Source: a bacterium
Lineage (GTDB): Bacteria > Patescibacteriota > Microgenomatia > UBA1400 > PJMF01
DNA: 64,000 bases
Reading direction: 5' to 3'
Assembly (NCBI GenBank): GCA_017431625.1
Contig: JAFRKQ010000015.1
Span: 17,608-81,607, forward strand
Both the position numbers and the translations under genes were made by a program. Under the pieces are notes generated by a model. That model was not told where the DNA came from. It ran no database searches and saw only the letters and a program-made list of their open reading frames with translations. Each line of letters begins with the position of its first letter. The first letter of the stretch is position 1. This document shows, in pieces, positions 4,913-62,666 of the stretch.

Positions 4913-5281
4913 ATGACAACAGTTGCACATAATTTATCCAATAGACAACGTCGACTCAAAAGAATGCATCGTCGCGTCAAAGCGATAGCGAGTCGGCCAA
5001 AACTCGTGATCACGCGCACCAATCGCTATATAGATCTGCAAGTGATCGGTGAAAATGGCTATGTCCAAGCGAGTGAAAGTGACATCGCTTTGGTCAAAGC
5101 TGGTCAGCTGGATCGTTCACTCACTAAAACCGAGCGGGCGGCGGCTACGGGTAAAGCATTGGCGGCCAAACTTCAGGAGAAAAATATCAAGTGCTTGGCA
5201 GTAGATCGCGGTGCGTACAAATTTCATGGTCGAATAAAGGCCGCAGTAGAAGCAATCAGAGAAAATGGAATTGAGGCGTAA
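4913..5281 (+). CDS. rplR: 50S ribosomal protein L18
   Basis: 122 aa uL18. Confidence 0.85.
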   Translation: MTTVAHNLSNRQRRLKRMHRRVKAIASRPKLVITRTNRYIDLQVIGENGYVQASESDIALVKAGQLDRSLTKTERAAATGKALAAKLQEKNIKCLAVDRGAYKFHGRIKAAVEAIRENGIEA

Positions 5282-5282
5282 A

Positions 5283-6065
5283 ATGGCATTGACTAATAAT
5301 AATACGAATAACAGTCGTTCTCAAGAGGCGAGTGTTGCTGAAGAAAAAAAGTACGAAGAAAAGGTCGTCCAGGTATCGCGTGTGTCCAAAAAGACCAAGG
5401 GCGGTAATCAATTTGGTTTCTCGATCCTAGTTGTGGTCGGCGATAAGAAGGGACGAGTGGGTGTCGGTTTGGGCAAAGGCAAAGATGTCTTGTCCTCGAT
5501 CAAAAAAGCCGTCAAGAAAGCACGTAAAAATATGATCAGTGTGCCAATGGATGGTACTACTATCCCCTTTCCTGTGCGGGTTAAAAAAGGCGCGGCCAAG
5601 GTTTTGCTCAAACCCGCTCCCAAGGGTTCGGGCGTTATTGCTGGTGGTGCTGTCCGTAGTGTAGTGGAAGCGGCTGGCATTCGTGATCTTTCGGCGAAAA
5701 TTTTGGGCACCAATAATCAAGCCAGTAATGTTTATGCCACCTTTACGGCGCTCAAACAAATGGAAAAAATGGTAGAACTTAAGGGTATTAAACTGAAGTC
5801 CATTGTGGAAATCGAAGCTGAAGAAGCGAAGAAATTTGAGGAAGAAGCAGCCAAGGCAAAAGCAGCCGAAAAAGGCAAGCAAGAAGCTTCAAAAAAGAAT
5901 CTTAAGAACGGTCGCAGTGGTGATAAAGCCAAAAAGCCTGTCAAAGATAGTAAAGATAAAAAGGGTGCTAAGTCAGCTGCTGTCAAAAAAGCTGCTAAGC
6001 CAGCGGCTAAATCAGCTCCCAGCAAGGGTGAGCAAGCGACACCCGCAGCCGAGTCGACCAAGTAG
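5283..6065 (+). CDS. rpsE: 30S ribosomal protein S5 with ~95 aa Lys/Ala/Glu-rich C-terminal extension
   Basis: uS5 core (VSRVSKKTKGG..FGFSILVVVGD...GIRDLSAKILG) then low-complexity tail KKFEEEAAKAKAAEKGK...AAKSAPSKG; ATG 5283 directly after rplR stop. Confidence 0.9.
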   Translation: MALTNNNTNNSRSQEASVAEEKKYEEKVVQVSRVSKKTKGGNQFGFSILVVVGDKKGRVGVGLGKGKDVLSSIKKAVKKARKNMISVPMDGTTIPFPVRVKKGAAKVLLKPAPKGSGVIAGGAVRSVVEAAGIRDLSAKILGTNNQASNVYATFTALKQMEKMVELKGIKLKSIVEIEAEEAKKFEEEAAKAKAAEKGKQEASKKNLKNGRSGDKAKKPVKDSKDKKGAKSAAVKKAAKPAAKSAPSKGEQATPAAESTK

Positions 6066-6088
6066 TCGGCGTCAATTAGAAAGGCCCA

Positions 6089-6523
6089 ATGTCAATTTTA
6101 AATCAGAATATCGATATCAGTAATAAGTCTAAAAAACGGCTTGGCCGTGGTTATGGTAGCGGCAAAGGCAAGACCGTTGGTCGCGGTACCAAAGGCTCGG
6201 GGGCGCGCAAAAGTCCTCACATGGCACCTATTTTTGAAGGCGGTCAGTTGCCACTCACCAAACGTTTGCCGATGATCCGTGGTAAATCGCGTTTTCAATC
6301 ATTTGCCAAAGTCGGTGAGGTCAATGTCGGTGATTTAGCCAAGCTAGACGCTGAGCTTATTAGTCTAGAAACACTCAAGCTTGCCGGTTTGGTGGATAAG
6401 CGGGTAAAAGCCGCAAAAGTGATTAACACTGGTAGCTTGGATAAAGCCGTTAAACTCCAAGGATTGCGCGTTTCGGCTGGAGCCAAAAAAGCCATTGAAG
6501 CTGCTGGCGGTAGCGTGGTTTAA
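6089..6523 (+). CDS. rplO: 50S ribosomal protein L15 (uL30 gene absent between rpsE and rplO)
   Basis: 144 aa ...KKRLGRGYGSGKGKTVGRGTKG uL15. Confidence 0.9.
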   Translation: MSILNQNIDISNKSKKRLGRGYGSGKGKTVGRGTKGSGARKSPHMAPIFEGGQLPLTKRLPMIRGKSRFQSFAKVGEVNVGDLAKLDAELISLETLKLAGLVDKRVKAAKVINTGSLDKAVKLQGLRVSAGAKKAIEAAGGSVV

Positions 6524-10654: not shown

Positions 10655-10800
10655 ATATGGTGATTTAGATATTATAGGATGTTTACGCATTATAGGATAA
10701 AATTTTCCAGGTATGAAAACTAAAAATTATCCTATAATATAATATTCTGATTAAAATTAGTCTGGAGTTTCTTTTATATTATAGGATTAAAAATGCTAAT
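10655..10800. repeat. ATTATAGGAT/ATCCTATAAT box repeat element, copy 1
   Basis: ATTATAGGAT-N30(TTCCAGG)-ATCCTATAAT-N40(GTCTGGAG)-ATTATAGGAT; same architecture at 42575-42730, 50985-51150, 62415-62540. Confidence 0.7.
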
Positions 10801-10831: not shown

Positions 10832-10840
10832 TGATATAAT
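10832..10840 (+). promoter_or_regulatory. Extended -10 (TGaTATAAT) for RNase P RNA
   Basis: 7 nt upstream of the predicted P1 5' strand. Confidence 0.5.
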
Positions 10841-10846
10841 ACACCC

Positions 10847-11106
10847 ACGGTAAGGCGACTCCAGGACAACCGCCGGTATCGGTCAAGATACTGGAGGAAA
10901 GTCTGGACAGCGCAAGAGAGGCTAGGTACAGAGTCACAGAGACGAGCCGTTTGAGTACGGGTGCAACGAGATAATCCCTAGCTGCTGCAACCGCCAGGTT
11001 TGACCTTAATGGACCTCTTGCCTATCATGGTCATGATCCCGCGGGCATTAGATAGATGGTTGTCAACCAAACAGAATCCAGCTTACTCGGAGCCGACCTT
11101 GCCGTC
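10847..11106 (+). ncRNA. rnpB: RNase P RNA (bacterial type, reduced ~260 nt)
   Basis: P4 strands GGAAAGTCTGGAC (10895-10907) and ACAGAATCCAGCTTA (11071-11085), matching the universal GGAAAGUCCGG / ACAGAAxCCGGCUUA with compensatory CCGG->CTGG/CCAG changes; P1 CGGTAAGG/CCTTGCCG and P2 CGACTCC/GGAGCCG pairings. Confidence 0.55.
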
Positions 11107-12561
11107 GGGTAAAAACTGACTGTAATGCTCGACAAATCCTCGTCCGAGTCCCGGAATCACCTGTAGATCGGGTAGCTTTTGCCAAGGAATGATACTTAGA
11201 TATGACAGCGTGAGATCGGTAATAATAGTACTGGGAATGAGTTTTTGTCGGCGGGCCTGTAGTTGGCGCCACTGCTGCCACTGGTGCAGGTTTTGTTTCA
11301 CTTTTTGGGGATAATGAAAATGGTAGCCAAGACAATTATCACACAAACCACACTCAAAACCAGGACGGCGCTCGTCAAAATAAGCCAAGACAAAACGTTG
11401 TCGACAAGTACGGCACTCGAGAAACTTTTGCACTTGCACTAGTTTTTGGAAAAGAATTTTTTGTCGCTGGGGTGTGAGCGTGTGGTTGCCTTTGATAAAT
11501 TGCAAACTGATTTCCAGATCTTTGTGGGTGTAAAAGGCATAGCAACGCGCGAGCTGGCCATCGCGCCCACCACGACCAATTTCTTGAAAGTAGTTTTCCA
11601 AATTGCTGCTGATTTGCGCGTGAATGACAAAGCGTACGTGTGGTTGGTCAACACCCATACCAAAAGCATTAGTAGCGACAATCACGGGTGTTACTCCGGC
11701 GATGAATTCCTCCTGAATTTGCGCTCGAGCGTCTTTGTCCAAGCCACCGTGATAGACTTTGATGAGTTTTTCGGGACGCAAAAGCGCATTGAGTTTGTCG
11801 GCAATAAAAACTGCCTGTCGGCGAGTGAGCACGTAAATGATGCCAATTTCACCTTGATGTTGTTGGAGTACCCACAGGATCTTGAGTAGTTTGTCGTGTT
11901 CGTTAAAACAATGATTGACCATAATTTTGAGATTGTCGCGGGCAAATGATTGCTGGCTGTGGAGTGGCTGGCGCAAGCCGCAAAAGCGCACAATGTCTCG
12001 TTGCGCTTGGTGATTGGCCGTGGCTGTCAGGGCAATAATCGGTGGTCTGGTGTCGGGGAAAATCTGCTGCAAGATGCGGCCGATTTGCAAGTAATGGGGG
12101 CGAAAATCATGACCCCAAACGCTCACACAGTGAGCTTCATCGATAGCAATGGCACTAATTGGCGATTGTCGGCATTGAGCTTGGAAACTATTACTACTGA
12201 GAGTTTCGGGAGCAGTGTAGACAAATTGATACTCGCCGCGTTTAAATTTTTCCAGGCGTCTGGCTCGCTCCTGACTCGTCAAGGTACTATTAATAAAAGT
12301 AGCGCGTAAGTTTCTTTTTTGCAAATTGGTCACTTGGTCTTGCATCAGGGAAATGAGCGGGGAAATAATTAAGACGCTGCCGCCCAAATATAGCCCCGGG
12401 ATTTGAAAACACAGACTTTTTCCACCACCTGTGGGGAGAATTGCCAAAACATCACGACCCGTGCAGACAGCCTCAATGATTTCCAGCTGTCCGGGGCGGA
12501 AATGAGGGTAGCCGAAATGCTCCAGCAAGAGAGCTTCGAGTTGTATTGATAGCTGGGTCAT
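11083..12561 (-). CDS. recQ: ATP-dependent DNA helicase RecQ
   Basis: FGYPHFRPGQLEIIEAV...LPTGGGKSLCFQIP...DEAHCVSVWGHDFRP, RQC Zn-binding Cys cluster; leaderless (TATAAT 7 nt before ATG 12561). Confidence 0.85.
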   Translation of the reverse strand: MTQLSIQLEALLLEHFGYPHFRPGQLEIIEAVCTGRDVLAILPTGGGKSLCFQIPGLYLGGSVLIISPLISLMQDQVTNLQKRNLRATFINSTLTSQERARRLEKFKRGEYQFVYTAPETLSSNSFQAQCRQSPISAIAIDEAHCVSVWGHDFRPHYLQIGRILQQIFPDTRPPIIALTATANHQAQRDIVRFCGLRQPLHSQQSFARDNLKIMVNHCFNEHDKLLKILWVLQQHQGEIGIIYVLTRRQAVFIADKLNALLRPEKLIKVYHGGLDKDARAQIQEEFIAGVTPVIVATNAFGMGVDQPHVRFVIHAQISSNLENYFQEIGRGGRDGQLARCYAFYTHKDLEISLQFIKGNHTLTPQRQKILFQKLVQVQKFLECRTCRQRFVLAYFDERRPGFECGLCDNCLGYHFHYPQKVKQNLHQWQQWRQLQARRQKLIPSTIITDLTLSYLSIIPWQKLPDLQVIPGLGRGFVEHYSQFLPDGKVGSE

Positions 12562-12699
12562 GTTTTTGATTATACTGACAATGTTGTCAAATGATTTCGC
12601 CACTGAGGCCTTTTTACTGACAGTTTGCTGATAAAAATGCCTTGAAATCAATATTTATTTGTGATTGATATTTCGTCATTTTTGTACGCTTGGGGTGGC

Positions 12700-13940: not shown

Positions 13941-14038
13941 ACTATAGTAGTGCTTGTCGCGATTGTAATGTTGCCAAATGCCAGCGATTTGTGTTATAAT
14001 GAACTTGAAAATTGACAACAATAATTGAGAAAGATAGT

Positions 14039-15475
14039 ATGGCGCAAACAGTAATGGGTAAAATAAATGATTGGGGTGGCCTAGATGAGGACGATCCCAT
14101 TATTGATAATTCGGCGCTGACAATGGAAGAGCTCACAGAAGTGTCGGTATCGGGGCTCGATGACGAACCCACAGCGGTGTCGGTTGGTGCGCCAGAGACA
14201 CCAGCGCCCGTGACTTTTCCGCATGTGCCGGCGGCAGCCACTGTGGTCTCCAGTGAACCGGTGGTATTACAACCGGTGGCAGATGAAGTACCACTGACGG
14301 CTGATAGTGCTACCACTGATTGGCAACCAGATGTGGTCCCGGCGGCGGCGACTGTTGATATGTCACCGGTGACGACCGTGACGCAGGCAGAATTGGCTGC
14401 CGCCTCAGCGATGGCAGCGGGCAGCGAGCTGCCAAATCTCAAGACGCAAGAATCAGCACCCGTGGTGGCTAGTGAGCGTGAGACAACCGAAACAGTGAAA
14501 AAGGTGTCAGCAAAAGTGGCGACTAAATCATTGCTGACCCGTTGGCGCGGCACTAAATTCAAGCCGGCCAAAGAGACTGACAAGGTGAAAAAAACGGCAC
14601 CCAAGCGCGCCCCGAAACAGTCAAAAGCTCGCACTGGAAAAAATGAATGGCAGCTGGTGACACTGGCTTTGTTGTTGGTGGTGGGGGTAGCTGGTGGGAG
14701 TTTCTGGTATCGCCGTCGCGGCGGTCAAGTGGCCGGCATCAAAAAAGAATTGGTCGCTGATTACCGTTTGGGTGCGGGTTATATTGCTACTACTGGCGTG
14801 TGTACGCCGGTTATTGACCCGAGCGTGCGTGCGAGTGTGGATGATTTTGTTTCGATTATTTCTGGTGATGGCTATATTGATGAAAGTGTTACGGGTGAGT
14901 TACGAACGCAGTTTGATTTTTTTCAGGAGCACGCTTTGGGTACAGGCGCCAGACACTGCTTTGCTTTGGAGTACTGTCATAATGATTTTGCCAATAATCT
15001 CCCCTTTGTACTTGCTTATGCTAGGCGCGCTTACGTGGATACTCATTATGGCAATGCCGGCGTGGGAGGTGTTGGCGGTCAGTGGGTAGCGGCGGGGCAA
15101 TTGCGTCAAGATGTGACTCAGCTTTTTGGTGTGAGTGAGGTTGATGTTAGCCTTTTCCCGGTCACCAATGGGACGATAAATGATGTTTACAATGCTGCCG
15201 ATGATTTATTCTTGATCCCTGCAGATGTGAATATCAGTGGACCTTATCACTATGAGCTGGAAAAAATACGGGCAAACGCCGCTACCAAGCAGCGAGTGTT
15301 TGTAGCCAAGATGGTCACTAGCGATAGCGCTTGTCAAGTAGTGATTAATGATGATCATTGCAATTGTCCGCAGACGCGTTATTATTTGGTACAAGATATT
15401 AATCCGGCTACTGGTGAGTATGTTTATACTCACGAGTATGTACAAGTTACAGGTGAGCGGCAAAAGGTAGATTGA
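14039..15475 (+). CDS. Single-pass membrane protein, paralog A of a tandem triplet (acidic disordered N-terminus, TM, 6-Cys C-terminal domain)
   Basis: TM WQLVTLALLLVVGVAGG; C-terminal motifs LEYCHNDF and CQVVINDDHCNCPQTRYYLV shared with the next two genes; alternative TTG start 14012. Confidence 0.6.
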   Translation: MAQTVMGKINDWGGLDEDDPIIDNSALTMEELTEVSVSGLDDEPTAVSVGAPETPAPVTFPHVPAAATVVSSEPVVLQPVADEVPLTADSATTDWQPDVVPAAATVDMSPVTTVTQAELAAASAMAAGSELPNLKTQESAPVVASERETTETVKKVSAKVATKSLLTRWRGTKFKPAKETDKVKKTAPKRAPKQSKARTGKNEWQLVTLALLLVVGVAGGSFWYRRRGGQVAGIKKELVADYRLGAGYIATTGVCTPVIDPSVRASVDDFVSIISGDGYIDESVTGELRTQFDFFQEHALGTGARHCFALEYCHNDFANNLPFVLAYARRAYVDTHYGNAGVGGVGGQWVAAGQLRQDVTQLFGVSEVDVSLFPVTNGTINDVYNAADDLFLIPADVNISGPYHYELEKIRANAATKQRVFVAKMVTSDSACQVVINDDHCNCPQTRYYLVQDINPATGEYVYTHEYVQVTGERQKVD

Positions 15476-15476
15476 A

Positions 15477-16604
15477 ATGTCAATACCCAAAGGCTATCCG
15501 ACGCCTCGTGTGCCTTCACCAACCAAAAGTGAAGACTGGCAAATTGGTGGACAACAAGATGCGGCGGGCAAAGTGCAGATGATTTTTGCGGGACAATCAC
15601 CAGCTTTCCCGGATTTAGTGCCCGCCAGCGAGCTGCCTGCGTCCAGCGCGTCTACTCCTACTCCACCACCGACACAGACACCGAGTCCCTCGGCGCATAA
15701 AATTCGCCGACGTCCGGACAAAATGAAAGGCCCGGGCTTTAATTGGCGAGGACTACATTGGCCATTGTATATTTCAGCGCTTGCAGTCGTGATTTTGTTG
15801 GCTCACGTACTGATGCGCTTTGCTAGTATGAGTGGCTTGCGCGATAATTTGGGTCACGAGTATCTGAATCAAGATTTGACACGTTTGGGAGCACCGCCTG
15901 TTGTTCCTTGTTTGGCTAGCGAAGAGGTGACTCTGCGTGAAAGCTTGGACGAGTTGGCGGCGACTTATGAGGCGACCTATTTTCGCGAGGAGCCAACCGT
16001 TGATGACCGAGCGCTTTTGGAGCGTTTCCTTAAACCAGCTCGAGTGGCTCAAGCGGTGGATTGTCTTGGCGGTGTCTATTGCCGGCAAGATTTTACCAAT
16101 CCGACGCTGCAAAAGTCAGTAATTCGGCATCTTTTGGCTTATGATTTGTCTTTGGTGCCAGGGCATAGTGAACCAGCCGGAACTTTTATGGTACAGCTGT
16201 ACTCGATGTTTGGTACCAAGCAAGTGGATTTGGCCACCGTACCTGATTTGGATTATCAAGCAGCTGATGAGACTTTTATTGTGCCCACACCTGTGGATGC
16301 GCCCACGCCTGCTTATGACTATACTTTGGAAGCTATTTGGATCAGTCCTAGTGAGGATGAAGCTGTATATCAAGCGCTTATGACGCCGACGCCGTCGTGT
16401 ACCTTGTCACTGCACGGCCAATGTTCTTGTCCACTGGCTCGTTACTATTTGGTTTTGCGCTATGATCCCGAAAGTGATCACTGGATGCACGCTTATCATT
16501 TTGTCCGTCGTCTTGGAGGAATTGATAATTTGCAGACTGGCGAACAAGTGACTGCGCCCGCGGCTTCAGACTCGACAAATGTTTTAGAAAGTGATAAACT
16601 ATAA
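15477..16604 (+). CDS. Single-pass membrane protein, paralog B
   Basis: TM LHWPLYISALAVVILLAHVL; CLGGVYCRQDF and CTLSLHGQCSCPLARYYLV motifs. Confidence 0.6.
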   Translation: MSIPKGYPTPRVPSPTKSEDWQIGGQQDAAGKVQMIFAGQSPAFPDLVPASELPASSASTPTPPPTQTPSPSAHKIRRRPDKMKGPGFNWRGLHWPLYISALAVVILLAHVLMRFASMSGLRDNLGHEYLNQDLTRLGAPPVVPCLASEEVTLRESLDELAATYEATYFREEPTVDDRALLERFLKPARVAQAVDCLGGVYCRQDFTNPTLQKSVIRHLLAYDLSLVPGHSEPAGTFMVQLYSMFGTKQVDLATVPDLDYQAADETFIVPTPVDAPTPAYDYTLEAIWISPSEDEAVYQALMTPTPSCTLSLHGQCSCPLARYYLVLRYDPESDHWMHAYHFVRRLGGIDNLQTGEQVTAPAASDSTNVLESDKL

Positions 16605-16630: not shown

Positions 16631-18253
16631 ATGCCAACAACCAATATTAATAATAGTCCTAATGCCAATTTGTCCACGCCTACTCCTATCGTGCCGGCGG
16701 GTTCTGCCCCCCAACCAGCAGCACCTGTGGGTGAGATTCCGACGCTCAATCCGGCACTGGTGAGTACTGGTCTACCCACTTTGGGTCAAAGTCTTTTGAT
16801 CTCTACCACTCCTCCACCCGCTGCCCCCACGCCGGCCCCTGCCGCTGCATTGAGTCAAACACTACCAACTACTGCGCCTGTTGTCCCGCCTTCATCGCCA
16901 GCTCCAGTGGCTACCCCTACTCCTTCTACTCCACTAGTCCCGCCAGCTCCCGCACCGGCGCCAGCTAGTCCAATTGCCCCCACCCCAACACCAGCGACAG
17001 TACCCACTCATCCGGTAGGTCTGGCCACACCTTCTGTGGGTACGCCACCGACCGCGGCACCACCAGCAACGGCTTCTGTTCCTACGCCGGGATTGCCACC
17101 AACACCAACACCAACACCGATGTCTGTACCAGCAGTGTCTTCAACACCAGCTCCCGCACCGGCGCCAGCTGCTACTCCCGCTCCAGTAGGCCCAGTCTCG
17201 GCTCCTAGTGTGCCGCCTATGCCAGGAACTGGTACAGGTACTAATACCTCGGGGAGTGTGCCGCCAGTGATCCCTTCAGTAGCACCCACCGCTCCTGGTG
17301 CTGAGCCCAAGCCAGTAACTCCTATTGCAGAAACGCCAGCCGCTAAGCCCGAGAAGAAAACTGATCTGACGATGATTATTTTGGCGGTCGTTTTGGTGAT
17401 TCTTGTAGTGGTCGCGGGTGTGTTGTGGTGGATGAATGCCAATGGCAAAAGTCTTTTTGGTGGTCAGGTGGCAACGGTGGTCACTCCTGAGCCTGTGGTC
17501 GCGCCTATTACTACCCCAGAGCCGGTCGCTGACGCTTCACCCGGTGGCTCGCGTGAGGAATTGGTGGCGATTGATGTCGATGATCTTTGTTATGTCAATC
17601 CCGACTCTTTGGGCCAACAAAAAGATGTGGAAGAGTTTGTCACTTGGGTCAATAATTATTTTACTGACGATTTGGAAAACAGTGAGTATTACCAAAATCT
17701 TTTTAACTATTATATGGAACGAGCCATCATGGCACCACCACTTTGTGACTCACATCAGTTGTATTGCCGCGCTGCTTTCAGTGAGCGGCCAGATTTTGTG
17801 GCTCAGTTTAGTCATTTTGGTGAACAATGGGAGCGACAAACTACCGAGTCAAAAACGCTCACGGGCCAGTCAATTCGCGATCGGGCGTTGATTGATTTTA
17901 ATATGCCTGATTTGGTCTTGGATGAGAATACTGGTCGTGGCAGTCTAGCTGGTAATGGCTGGAAATACAATGCCGATCAAGATATATTGCTTTCTTTTGG
18001 TGAGTATACTTTGCCCCAGCAAGATTACACTTATCGGTTTGTTAAGGGTATGCAATTGGCGGCTACCCAAGAAGTGGTGCTGATCGGACAAGGGGTGGCA
18101 ACACAAAATTGCAAGGAGGAAAATAACTGTGTTTGCGAAGCTTCACAAATATATTTGTATTTACAAAAAGGGCCAACCGGCGAGCTTTATTATTCTAATC
18201 TCTTTATTGAGCCATTGGTAGGCAAAACTGCTGAGGTAGATGCTGATTTATAA
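16631..18253 (+). CDS. Single-pass membrane protein, paralog C (240-aa Pro/Ala/Thr-rich N-terminus)
   Basis: TM LTMIILAVVLVILVVVAGVLWW; LCDSHQLYCRAAF and NCKEENNCVCEASQIYLYL motifs. Confidence 0.6.
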   Translation: MPTTNINNSPNANLSTPTPIVPAGSAPQPAAPVGEIPTLNPALVSTGLPTLGQSLLISTTPPPAAPTPAPAAALSQTLPTTAPVVPPSSPAPVATPTPSTPLVPPAPAPAPASPIAPTPTPATVPTHPVGLATPSVGTPPTAAPPATASVPTPGLPPTPTPTPMSVPAVSSTPAPAPAPAATPAPVGPVSAPSVPPMPGTGTGTNTSGSVPPVIPSVAPTAPGAEPKPVTPIAETPAAKPEKKTDLTMIILAVVLVILVVVAGVLWWMNANGKSLFGGQVATVVTPEPVVAPITTPEPVADASPGGSREELVAIDVDDLCYVNPDSLGQQKDVEEFVTWVNNYFTDDLENSEYYQNLFNYYMERAIMAPPLCDSHQLYCRAAFSERPDFVAQFSHFGEQWERQTTESKTLTGQSIRDRALIDFNMPDLVLDENTGRGSLAGNGWKYNADQDILLSFGEYTLPQQDYTYRFVKGMQLAATQEVVLIGQGVATQNCKEENNCVCEASQIYLYLQKGPTGELYYSNLFIEPLVGKTAEVDADL

Positions 18254-22463: not shown

Positions 22464-22537
22464 GGTCGCATGGCTCAGTTGGTTAGAGCGTTCGATTCAC
22501 ATTCGAGAGGTCCTAGGTTCGAATCCTAGTGCGACCA
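22464..22537 (+). tRNA. tRNA-Val (anticodon CAC)
   Basis: Cloverleaf: acceptor GGTCGCA/TGCGACC, D GCTC/GAGC, anticodon loop TTCACAT, T arm CTAGG-TTCGAAT-CCTAG; no encoded CCA. Confidence 0.9.
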
Positions 22538-22671
22538 CAGTTTTATTTTTTTTGGGTTAAAAACTCATTTGGGAATTATTGTAGTTTGTTATCAAATAAT
22601 CACTGCCGAGTTTTGTACACGTTGATACAGTTTGTGTTGACAGATAAAACGTACCATGCTAACGCCGCTCA

Positions 22672-40134: not shown

Positions 40135-40211
40135 GGCTCGGTGGTGTAGCTGGTTAACATAACTCCCTGTCACGGAGTAGATCGCCGGTTCGAGTCCGGT
40201 CCGAGTCGCCA
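40135..40211 (+). tRNA. tRNA-Asp (anticodon GTC), CCA encoded
   Basis: Acceptor GGCTCGG/CCGAGTC, anticodon stem ACTCC/GGAGT loop CTGTCAC, T arm GCCGG-TTCGAGT-CCGGT. Confidence 0.9.
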
Positions 40212-40356: not shown

Positions 40357-41661
40357 TTAGTAGGCTTCATCATTATAGCGTGAGTTGATACCCCAATCAC
40401 TGATTTTGGCAACACCATGTCCAGTGTGACCAACACCCAAGGGATATTGATCTCCGTTGGGAGTTGGCATACGCTCTTGCTGGCGTCGTTGATTGTCCCA
40501 CGCATAGCCTTCACCGTCAATCATGGTGGTAGACTCAAAGTGGTAACCGGTGGGCGACAAGCTGCACTCCACACTAGGAGTTTTAGTCAGACAATCGGGA
40601 TCATTTTGACTGGCGACACCTACACAACCAGCGTGCCCAGCAATGTAAGATGAACCACCACCGCCAGTGCCGACGTAGTTGGTAACACTACCACCAGCTT
40701 CCCCACCATACCAACCGCCACCACCGCCGCTGCCATAACTAGGTGCACTACCGCCTTGGCCAAAAGCACTCCGACGCCAGAAATCGCCCGCAGTGACTTC
40801 ACTGGTTACTTGTGTTCCGCCTGCTCGATTGATGTAATCGGGAGACTCGTCACCACAAAAAGCAAAATTTGTATTAGTGCCAGAATAACCAACAAGTCCA
40901 CCGGCACTACCACCTTTGGCACGACAACCAGCATAATTGAGCGCGCCACCGCCACCACCGGCAACCATAATCCGACTGCTGAGGGAACCGGTATCGTACC
41001 ATTCTCCTTTGATCAGGCGAATATCAGTGGCACCGCCACCACCGCTTCCCCAAGAGGATGGGGCTACGCCACCAGCGCCGCCGGCATTAAATGCTGCTGT
41101 TTTTTCGCCGTTGCCCACAACATGTTCGCCGACATAAACATAAACGATCGTGTCATTGTCAACAGTGAGTATCCCCGCGGTATAAGCTCCACAGCCACCG
41201 TCATTGTGCTGTTCGTCAATATTGCCACCTTGGGCACCCCAAAGTTCAACATAATACGTGTGATTGGCCTTGAGTGTCACCGTCTGCACTGCTCCTGTAT
41301 AAGTAAAAATCTTGCTACCATGCTCTGCTATTGTTTGTTCTTGGGTGTCGGTAACGACTATGCTATTATTGTCAGGCGGAATTTCCCAGTCAATCTTATT
41401 ATCTATAGCAACGTGACTTGGTGATGAGGGTGCGGGTGTGGGTAATGGTTGACCATCGTCGTTTTGGCTTGCAATATTCAAGAAACTGTCTTGAGAAGTC
41501 GATCTGGGTGTTTGATAGGTAGTAATTGCAGCGGCACCAACCAAAGTGACAATGACGATAAAAACACCAATGGTAACAATCGTGCTAGTGTCATCACTGT
41601 TAGGTTGGTATTTTGAAGCGGTATTATTGCTAGTATTGAGATTTTCTTCTTGACTGGACAT
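40357..41661 (-). CDS. Membrane-anchored glycine-rich-domain surface protein
   Basis: N-terminal TM IVTIGVFIVIVTLVGAAAI, then YVELWGAQGG...GGGGA...GGSAGGLVGY...GGGGGWYGGEAGG repeats reminiscent of the ALK-type Gly_rich domain; own promoter TTGACA-17-TATAGT. Confidence 0.6.
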   Translation of the reverse strand: MSSQEENLNTSNNTASKYQPNSDDTSTIVTIGVFIVIVTLVGAAAITTYQTPRSTSQDSFLNIASQNDDGQPLPTPAPSSPSHVAIDNKIDWEIPPDNNSIVVTDTQEQTIAEHGSKIFTYTGAVQTVTLKANHTYYVELWGAQGGNIDEQHNDGGCGAYTAGILTVDNDTIVYVYVGEHVVGNGEKTAAFNAGGAGGVAPSSWGSGGGGATDIRLIKGEWYDTGSLSSRIMVAGGGGGALNYAGCRAKGGSAGGLVGYSGTNTNFAFCGDESPDYINRAGGTQVTSEVTAGDFWRRSAFGQGGSAPSYGSGGGGGWYGGEAGGSVTNYVGTGGGGSSYIAGHAGCVGVASQNDPDCLTKTPSVECSLSPTGYHFESTTMIDGEGYAWDNQRRQQERMPTPNGDQYPLGVGHTGHGVAKISDWGINSRYNDEAY

Positions 41662-42574: not shown

Positions 42575-42730
42575 AAAAAATTGTCTATTTTAGTGAATTA
42601 TCCTATAATTTATGAGATTGTCCAGACTAATTTAAAACGGAATAATATATTATAGGATAAATAGTAACTTTTTTGCCTGGAAAAATATGGCAAAACTTGG
42701 TTAAAATCCTATAATAATTAAAAATTATGG
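42575..42730. repeat. ATTATAGGAT/ATCCTATAAT box repeat element, copy 2
   Basis: ATCCTATAAT-N40(GTCCAGAC)-ATTATAGGAT-N47(GCCTGGAAAAA)-ATCCTATAAT. Confidence 0.7.
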
Positions 42731-50984: not shown

Positions 50985-51150
50985 TTCGGGTGTTATTTAT
51001 ATTATAAGTCCGAAACTTTTAATATTATAGGATTTTAAGCCATTATAGCTCATAATTTCCAGGCGAAAATTTGCTGAAAGTCCTATAAGATATTTTTACG
51101 TTCGGAAAAAGTCTGGATGATTATTAATATTATAGGATATATTTGTATAC
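50985..51150. repeat. ATTATAGGAT/ATCCTATAAT box repeat element, copy 3
   Basis: ATTATAGGAT...TTCCAGGCGAAAAT...GTCCTATAAG...AGTCTGGAT...ATTATAGGAT. Confidence 0.65.
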
Positions 51151-62414: not shown

Positions 62415-62540
62415 TATCTTATAGGATTTTAACCCTTTTTTTGTCAAAATCTCCAGGCAGAAAAATTTTATTTAATCCTATAATATATGTTATCGATTTA
62501 AAACCAGGCATGAAATTAAAATTATATAGGATAATATTGT
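62415..62540. repeat. ATTATAGGAT/ATCCTATAAT box repeat element, copy 4
   Basis: TTATAGGAT-N47(CTCCAGGCAGAAAAA)-ATCCTATAAT-N36(AAACCAGGCATGAAA)-ATATAGGAT. Confidence 0.7.
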
Positions 62541-62592
62541 ATAAATTTTTTACTCAAAATCGGAAAAAATCACCTTTTGATAAGCATTTTTG

Positions 62593-62666
62593 TGACTCCA
62601 GAGGGATTCGAACCCTCGATCTTTTGGATGAAAACCAAATATCCTGGACCGCTAGACGATGGAGCC
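62593..62666 (-). tRNA. tRNA-Glu (anticodon TTC)
   Basis: Reverse complement GGCTCCATCGTCTAGCGGTCCAGGAT...TTTGG-TTTTCAT-CCAAA...GAGGG-TTCGAAT-CCCTC-TGGAGTC-A closely parallels canonical tRNA-Glu. Confidence 0.85.

Follow-up and report, generated by a model that had tools for sequence, protein, structure and literature searches.

A probable RNase P RNA gene of 259 nucleotides, without helices P8 and P9, in a Patescibacteria genome

The window analyzed here, a stretch of 64,000 nucleotides (nt) from contig JAFRKQ010000015.1 (assembly GCA_017431625.1), carries at positions 10847-11105 of its forward strand an rnpB gene of 259 nt, whose product is a reduced RNase P RNA of type A. On the evidence of its sequence and of the sequences of its relatives, we consider it very likely that this gene is functional and specifies the catalytic RNA of the RNase P of a bacterium of the Patescibacteria, also called the candidate phyla radiation (CPR). 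The RNA lacks five helices, P8, P9, P13, P14, and P18, as well as the GGU of L15, and retains the remainder of the type A fold, P12 as a stub of 4 bp, with its two pseudoknots. An earlier note on this DNA had proposed a minimal RNase P RNA of roughly 260 nt at this place, and the proposal is supported by covariance-model homology, by covariation in relatives, and by conservation of the promoter.

In a search with the Rfam models, positions 10854-11101 align with the full length of RF00010, the bacterial class A model (model positions 1-367), at 89.3 bits and E = 1.2e-27, and this is the best-scoring family of the RNase P clan for the window RNA. The signature of type A is present in the form of the P6 pseudoknot and P16/P17, and the extra hairpins of type B (P5.1, P10.1, and P15.1) are absent. 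The core junctions GAGGAAAGUC, ACAGA.A, GGGUG.AA, AGAU.RAUG, and ACAGAA.CC.GCUUA all align with high posterior probability, and none of them varies within the clade made up of the window RNA and its close relatives. Plain single-sequence minimum free energy folding was uninformative for this RNA (z = -1.6), with the pseudoknotted core mis-paired.

Relatives were sought by scanning species-representative genomes for both P4 strands at a distance of 150-180 nt, which gave 40 loci. Seven of these (L031, L012, L010, L021, L026, L009, and L017) hold true relatives of the window RNA, 74-91% identical to it and 239-248 nt long, so that all eight members of the clade fall between 239 and 259 nt. A hand-written secondary structure was turned into a covariance model, R1, to which the eight sequences were realigned, and pairs were then counted with those of the P4 and P6 pseudoknots included. 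An alignment fitted to a model in this way favors the structure, yet the same compensatory changes are visible in a plain MAFFT alignment and in a listing of the segments. Standard pairs occupy 94.6% of the cells, against 32-46% in controls in which the 3' partners were slid by 1-3 columns, and two-sided changes occur at 35 pairs, compared with 7-9 when the partners were slid. In 500 shuffles the observed numbers of paired cells and of two-sided pairs or cells were never reached, nor was the covariation score; the number of further pair types was unexceptional (64 of 500 shuffles). At least one compensatory pair is found in 12 of the 13 helices, the exception being P17, which has 2 bp and shows one-sided variation only, and P1, P2, P3, P5, P7, P10/11, P12, and P15 each contain compensatory pairs with 90-100% of their cells paired. 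R1 scores the members of the clade at 220-280 bits and has a single match in the window, at 278.7 bits.

The helices that the earlier note had read from the sequence are borne out by the relatives. Both strands of P4, which it had found to carry a compensatory change, lie in GGAAAGTCTGGAC (10897-10909) and ACAGAATCCAGCTTA (11071-11085), where A10899-A10900-G10901 pairs with C11082-U11083-U11084 and C10903-U10904-G10905-G10906 with C11078-C11079-A11080-G11081, leaving U10902 as the universal bulged U of this helix. The pair 10904/11080 (alignment columns 54/238) is C-G in four species, U-A in the other four, and mismatched in none, which is true covariation. The pairing it had proposed for P1, CGGTAAGG (10848-10855) with CCTTGCCG (11097-11104), and that for P2 hold too. 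P1 is composed of 9 bp (10847-10855/11097-11105), an internal loop, a CUCC/GGAG segment (10859-10862/11089-11092), and the pair G10864-C11086; it is kept by different sequences in every relative and is about 9 bp longer in the window than in the others. P6 has 6-7 bp, six of them conserved in all eight sequences and two compensatory, and in E. coli this helix has about 4 bp. The coordinates of the individual elements are collected in the table.

Features of the reduced RNase P RNA and its surroundings (window coordinates; counts for 21 sequences refer to all the RNAs without P8 and P9 that are discussed in the text)
Feature	Positions	Strand	Pairing, content, or source
Extended -10 promoter, TGaTATAAT	10832-10840	+	Read from sequence
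P1 5' strand	10847-10864	+	Pairs with 11086-11105 (duplex prediction)
P2 5' strand, GACAACC	10865-10871	+	Pairs with GGTTGTC, 11058-11064; compensatory pairs 4/7 (8 sequences), 7/7 (21 sequences)
P3 hairpin	10873-10894	+	8 bp, loop GGUCAA; 6/8 pairs compensatory
P4 5' strand, AAG-U-CUGG	10899-10906	+	Pairs with 11078-11084; 100% of cells paired
P5 5' strand	10908-10911	+	Pairs with 10984-10987; G-C to A-U in 2/8; 3/4 pairs compensatory (21 sequences)
P6 pseudoknot 5' strand, GCAAGAG	10912-10918	+	Pairs with CUCUUGC, 11015-11021, in loop L17
Fused P7-P10 helix 5' strand, GGCUAGG	10920-10926	+	Pairs with CCUAGCU, 10977-10983; nothing between P7 and P10
Specificity-domain remnant	10931-10976	+	P11 10931-10935/10970-10976; ACAGA.A and GGGUG.AA motifs kept in Rfam alignment
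J11/12, ACAGAGACGAG	10936-10946	+	Rfam alignment
P12 stub	10947-10960	+	4 bp; shortened in Rfam alignment; 4/4 pairs compensatory
J12/11, GUGCAACGA	10961-10969	+	Rfam alignment
P15, P16, P17, L17 block	10991-11044	+	P15 10991-10994/11041-11044, 3/4 pairs compensatory; P16 11001-11005/11029-11033, 5 bp, 1 compensatory pair (8 sequences)
J15/2, GCAUUAGAUAGAU	11045-11057	+	Conserved AGAU.RAUG region; AGATAGAT invariant in clade
J2/4 and P4 3' strand, ACAGAAUCCAGCUUA	11071-11085	+	Clade-invariant except covarying base 11080
recQ helicase gene	11083-12651	-	Convergent with rnpB; Pfam DEAD, Helicase_C, RecQ_Zn_bind, HRDC
tRNA gene	22464-22540
tRNA gene	40135-40211
tRNA gene	62592-62666

In the alignment with RF00010, model positions 74-103, which hold P8 and P9, shrink from 30 nt to 1 nt, the P13/P14 block shrinks from 43 nt to 1 nt, most of P12 is collapsed, and the whole P18 hairpin is deleted. 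The earlier note had taken the short length to imply the loss of helices of the P13/P14/P16-17 type. P13 and P14 are indeed gone, but P16 and P17 are retained, as is the P6 pseudoknot, and the losses of P18 and, the most unusual ones, of P8 and P9 had gone unnoticed. Where the P8 and P9 arm would stand, P7 and P10 form one contiguous helix of 7 bp, in which five of the seven pairs are compensatory among the eight sequences. In the same alignment the consensus CGGGUa becomes UGAUC, so that the J16/15 strand, UGAUCCC (11034-11040), has no GGU, and pairing with the 3'-CCA of tRNA is therefore not expected. This fits with the tRNA genes of the window, only one of which (tRNA-Asp) encodes the 3'-CCA; the bases after the discriminator are CAG in tRNA-Val (22464-22537) and CAA in tRNA-Glu.

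Conservation extends to the promoter. The 5' end of P1 is preceded at 4-7 nt by a perfect TATAAT in all eight genes of the clade, six of which also have the TG extension, and in the window the extended -10 element that had been reported before P1 ends 6 nt before the first P1 base, 10847. Transcription would, judging by this conserved sequence, start at the first base of P1 or a few nt from it, and since the spacing between TATAAT and P1 is conserved, the primary 5' end would be essentially the mature 5' end.

Several observations weigh against a functional RNase P RNA. The match to RF00010, at 89.3 bits, falls below the Rfam gathering threshold of 100 bits, and by that score the RNA fails to qualify as a member of the family. 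The gene would therefore be missed by standard annotation; the 64-kb window, when scanned at the curated Rfam thresholds, yields three tRNAs only and no canonical rnpB. Covariance models had been suggested as a means of refuting the assignment, and here they give an ambiguous answer, with no match at the gathering threshold and yet an E-value of 1e-27. A second difficulty lies in the architecture. Through the loss of P8, P9, and P18, the struts L8-P4, L18-P8, and L9-P1 all become impossible. These contacts join the specificity and catalytic domains in type A RNAs, and when L8-P4 and L18-P8 are disrupted jointly in model type A RNAs, kreact/Km falls 22- to 3000-fold (PMC8457005). Losses so costly in the model RNAs would call for another way of orienting the two domains here. 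A scan of the clade alignment for a new long-range covarying helix that would compensate for them gave nothing convincing: P4 could be lengthened by 1 bp, and the other candidates overlapped helices already annotated. No intrinsic terminator is visible downstream of rnpB in the window, so the 3' end presumably arises by read-through into recQ followed by trimming. Finally, rnpA, which the earlier note had named as the partner to look for, does not appear in the 64-kb window: a motif search over all open reading frames (ORFs) returned one spurious match only, and tblastn with RnpA sequences of E. coli and B. subtilis returned nothing. A weak RnpA match in one of the other loci, L023, was rejected as a MiaA-like ORF.

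If these features were signs of decay, the gene would be a relic of rnpB, and RNase P activity would come from a canonical rnpB at another place in the genome or from a protein-only enzyme of the HARP type. Such decay would account for the low Rfam score and for the disappearance of five helices, some of which are reported as fully or mostly conserved (PMC12974513), and our view is restricted to a 64-kb window of the genome; within that window neither Rfam nor R1 detects the full-length rnpB that had been named as grounds for abandoning the assignment. A pseudogene would not be expected, however, to show 94.6% pairing and compensatory changes across eight species, nor to keep invariant sequences in the catalytic core and, in eight of eight genes, a perfect -10 box at a constant spacing. 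Circularized CPR genomes are moreover reported to have one diverged, sub-threshold RNase P RNA each, so that complete genomes exist with only such copies (PMC8172020). We regard a relic as very unlikely for these reasons. An accidental likeness of non-coding DNA, or of DNA beside recQ, to RNase P motifs could likewise point to the sub-threshold Rfam score, but to nothing else, and it would have to produce an E-value of 1.2e-27 and orthologs with covariation in seven other genomes, which leaves it a negligible probability.

As homology and covariation show, the RNA keeps the catalytic center (P1-P5, including the bulged U of the P4 pseudoknot, J5/15, P15-P17, and P6) together with the tRNA-elbow module of the specificity domain (P10/11, J11/12, the P12 stub, and J12/11). 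With the P8 and P9 arm gone, P7 stacks directly into P10 as a continuous helix of 7 bp. In combination with an RnpA encoded elsewhere, the RNA is predicted from its family to catalyze the Mg2+-dependent hydrolytic cleavage of pre-tRNA 5' leaders, with J11/12 and J12/11 probably reading the tRNA elbow and P4/P5/J5-15 probably reading the acceptor stem, and with no pairing to CCA. What keeps the two domains in register may be the rigid P5-P7/P10-P11 stack, a P6 lengthened to 6-7 bp, and/or the protein. P6 is said to bridge the two domains at their junction (PMC12974513).

The window RNA resembles RNAs of class A (RF00010; E. coli M1 RNA and T. maritima 3Q1Q) in P1-P7, P10/11, P12, and P15-P17, in the P4 and P6 pseudoknots, and in the bulged U; the sequences of J3/4, J11/12, J12/13, J5/15, J18/2, and J2/4 are conserved, and the model aligns end to end. 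It differs from them in its size, about 259 nt as opposed to the typical 340-420 nt (PMC4919922), in the absence of P8, P9, P13, P14, P18, the L15 GGU, and the three struts, in a P12 of 4 bp, and in scoring below the threshold.

Small and diverged RNase P RNAs have been described in the CPR before. For 10 of 35 closed CPR genomes they came to light only after the Rfam thresholds had been lowered (Lui et al. 2021, PMC8172020). Many RNAs of this group lack P13/14/18, losses of P16 and P17 and sometimes of P12 or P15 are reported as well, and the UGG motif is absent in 23 of the 35 (PMC8172020). With these published RNAs (PMC8172020; supporting information of PMC12974513) the window RNA shares a CPR host, a sub-threshold score, the lack of P13/P14/P18 and of UGG/GGU, and a small size. 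In the published ones, however, it is P12, P15, P16/17, or P6 that is lost, and P8/P9 appear in the drawings, whereas the window RNA keeps P6, a stub of P12, and P15-17 and is without both P8 and P9. According to a 2026 survey that covers 337 RNAs from bacteria and 298 from archaea, P1, P4, P5, P7, and P9 are "fully conserved" and most lineages have P8; P8 and P9 are regarded there as one ancestral segment (AES7), and the compensation for CPR losses of P6, P13, and P14 is called "unclear" (PMC12974513). We found no description of the loss of P8/P9 in bacteria in the open-access papers searched, including PMC8172020 and PMC12974513.

Outside the bacteria, natural reductions of the same ancestral fold occur in archaea, where type M lacks P8 (PMC4919922) and the type T of Caldivirga has an extended P7 in place of P9/P10 (PMC3579882). 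The archaeal RNAs work with at least four protein subunits, as opposed to the single bacterial protein expected for the window RNA. Type M is also without P6, P16, and L15, and type T (RF02357) is without almost the whole specificity domain, and the window RNA fails both definitions, with P10/11, J11/12, P12, P6, and P16/17 all present. Among bacteria, the RNase P RNA of Mycoplasma fermentans, reportedly described by Siegel et al. in 1996 as a type B RNA of 276 nt, is another naturally minimized example. It is without P12 (PMC8172020), whereas the window RNA is derived from type A with P6/P16/P17, is smaller, and has lost other helices.

The P8/P9-less architecture is shared more widely than the clade of the window. 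Among the 40 short RNAs, it is found in that clade, in ten metagenome-assembled genomes (MAGs) labelled Elusimicrobia (L004, L005, L016, L018, L019, L020, L022, L024, L027, and L036), and at loci L023, L029, and L044. The genomes that have it thus number at least 21 at the species level, and their labels name two phyla or more. In the 21 RNAs, 95.2% of the cells are paired, compensatory changes are seen at 51 of 54 pairs, and each of the seven pairs in the fused P7-P10 helix covaries. The Elusimicrobia-labelled RNAs, about 240-260 nt long, match R1 over its full length at 92-108 bits; their fused P7-P10 helix covaries, and in the alignment of L024 the P8/P9 segment goes from 30 to 0 nt, P13/14 from 43 to 0 nt, and P18 from 24 to 0 nt. 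They differ from the window RNA, to which they are similar in the core only, in keeping the GGU and a P12 of about 10 bp, and P6 has its usual short form in L024, the one member inspected for this helix. Because they keep the GGU and the long P12, they pass the Rfam threshold (126-157 bits) and are annotated normally.

It is possible, and we put this forward tentatively as somewhat short of an even bet, that the window clade, the Elusimicrobia-labelled RNAs, and those of L023, L029, and L044 form an undescribed structural class, from which P8 and P9 (AES7), P13/14, and P18 have been cleanly excised. RNAs of such a class would manage with a single protein and with none of the three known struts. 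P9 could then no longer count as universal, and the fused P7-P10 helix, together with the lengthened P6 in the window clade, would represent a minimal solution to the orientation of the domains. Small, sub-threshold RNase P RNAs in the CPR are already known, and it is the architecture without P8 and P9, P13/14, and P18 that is undescribed as far as the searchable literature shows. We are cautious about its novelty since that literature is the open-access part and since RNAs of the Elusimicrobia type are routinely annotated by automatic pipelines.

A metagenome scan with the P8/P9-less signature gave one locus only, L044. There, a metagenome contig of 1.9 kb (JGI contig Ga0137429_1019872) contains, within L044:447-1742, a P8/P9-less RNA of 276 nt on the minus strand at 807-1082, among four tRNA genes of the same strand, and the arrangement may be a co-transcription unit of tRNA genes and rnpB. 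RNAs of similar size in Shapirobacteria retain the P8 and P9 hairpins. Given that these keep what the window clade has lost, there must be at least two routes to RNAs of about 250 nt in the CPR. One of them, L028:3320-3572 from Candidatus Shapirobacteria GW2011_GWF2_37_20, keeps P8, P9, and a short P12 and is without P13/14/18; its best match is the archaeal family RF00373, at 116.9 bits against a threshold of 84, and annotation pipelines could label it as an archaeal RNase P.

The 3' end of the RNA had been described as antisense to the stop region of recQ, and so it is. The overlap with this convergent gene measures 23 nt (11083-11105), in which the last seven codons and the stop of recQ are antisense to the 3' strands of P4 and P1. 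The recQ ORF reads through the antisense of P1 up to a TAA that is the complement of 11083-11085, that is, of the UUA with which the conserved GCUUA of the P4 3' strand ends. Could the 3' part of the RNA serve mainly in antisense control of recQ, possibly beside a function in RNase P? The overlap spans the recQ stop codon, transcription of an RNA without a terminator should continue antisense into recQ, and the convergent order of recQ and rnpB is kept in four of the seven relatives. The distance from the recQ stop to the RNA 3' end varies, however, from overlaps of 23 nt in the window and 9 nt in L017 (L017:4415-4423) to gaps of 45 nt in L012, about 547 nt in L031 (where the stop lies inside the tblastn alignment), and 664 nt in L009. 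The overlapping residues, moreover, belong to a C-terminal extension specific to the window, RecQ ending there in LPDGKVGSE and in the relatives in LPK(R), which fits the loss of spacer DNA in a compact genome. As the overlap is not conserved, we reject antisense regulation as the explanation for it and judge such a role highly improbable. The 23-nt overlap of what we read as a functional rnpB looks like the product of spacer-DNA loss in a compact genome and not like a regulatory device. In L017, a MAG from goat jejunum, RecQ has a longer C-terminal extension (ending in LPPRDAPDLRSGAPTITL), and a strong GC-rich hairpin stands downstream of the RNA 3' end.

That the window belongs to a CPR genome is indicated by its closest relatives and by its ribosomal protein genes. 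The closest RNA (91% identity) and the closest RecQ (71% identity) both come from a MAG titled "Patescibacteria group bacterium". In the ribosomal operon (L6, L18, S5, and L15), S5 ends at 6065 and L15 starts at 6089 with no L30 gene between them, and the absence of L30 is a hallmark of the CPR. In the same region (5265-6523), S5 has 266 amino acids, about 90 residues beyond the Pfam S5 domains, and L15 is followed by RmuC and not by SecY. Contigs with the same sequence are present in ENA metagenome assemblies. Some record titles among the loci conflict with their content: L009, L010, L012, and L026 are titled "uncultured Pseudomonadales" and L008, L029, and L041 "uncultured Gammaproteobacteria", but the RNase P RNA, and RecQ where present, of these seven Third Party Annotation (TPA) MAGs is closest to those of Patescibacteria and Shapirobacteria MAGs. 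Their GC content is 34-48%, and the labels look wrong.

Elsewhere in the window, the 10-mer ATTATAGGAT, whose complement ATCCTATAAT holds a perfect -10 box, is enriched, with 12 occurrences found against 3.3 expected and none of 100 shuffles reaching 12. The copies cluster in four intergenic regions (10664-10787, 42600-42715, 51024-51138, and 62418-62484), which are flanked by an ORF of unknown function and rnpB, by Hsp20 and Wzy-like genes, by PMI and pyruvate kinase, and by Glf and tRNA-Glu, with no obvious regulon among them. A hairpin unit of 59 nt at 10729-10787 has an inverted copy at 42600-42658, and a TCCAGG core is common to the other spacers. The 10-mer clusters could represent a module with promoter or operator function, or else a small mobile repeat. 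Sub-threshold Rfam matches upstream of rnpB to mir-5470, snoZ155, and SCARNA7 were rejected as artefacts of the AT-rich hairpin repeat, the "mir-5470" match being the hairpin at 10729-10787 itself. An ORF of 434 amino acids on the reverse strand (40357-41661) matches the Pfam ALK/LTK glycine-rich domain (PF12810, E = 2.3e-41), and the large ORFs at 14012-15475, 15477-16604, 16631-18253, and 13942-14634 have no Pfam match.

Only one of the eight members of the window clade, L010 at 106.2 bits, exceeds the RF00010 threshold. Genomes carrying the other seven would seem to be without rnpB, a gene that is used as a check of completeness, and R1 recovers them. An RNA without P8, P9, P13, P14, and P18 would bring the natural core below the size of the classical minimal consensus, and RNAs without P8 and P9 would offer a testable system for how the domains of RNase P RNA are kept in register with a single protein cofactor.

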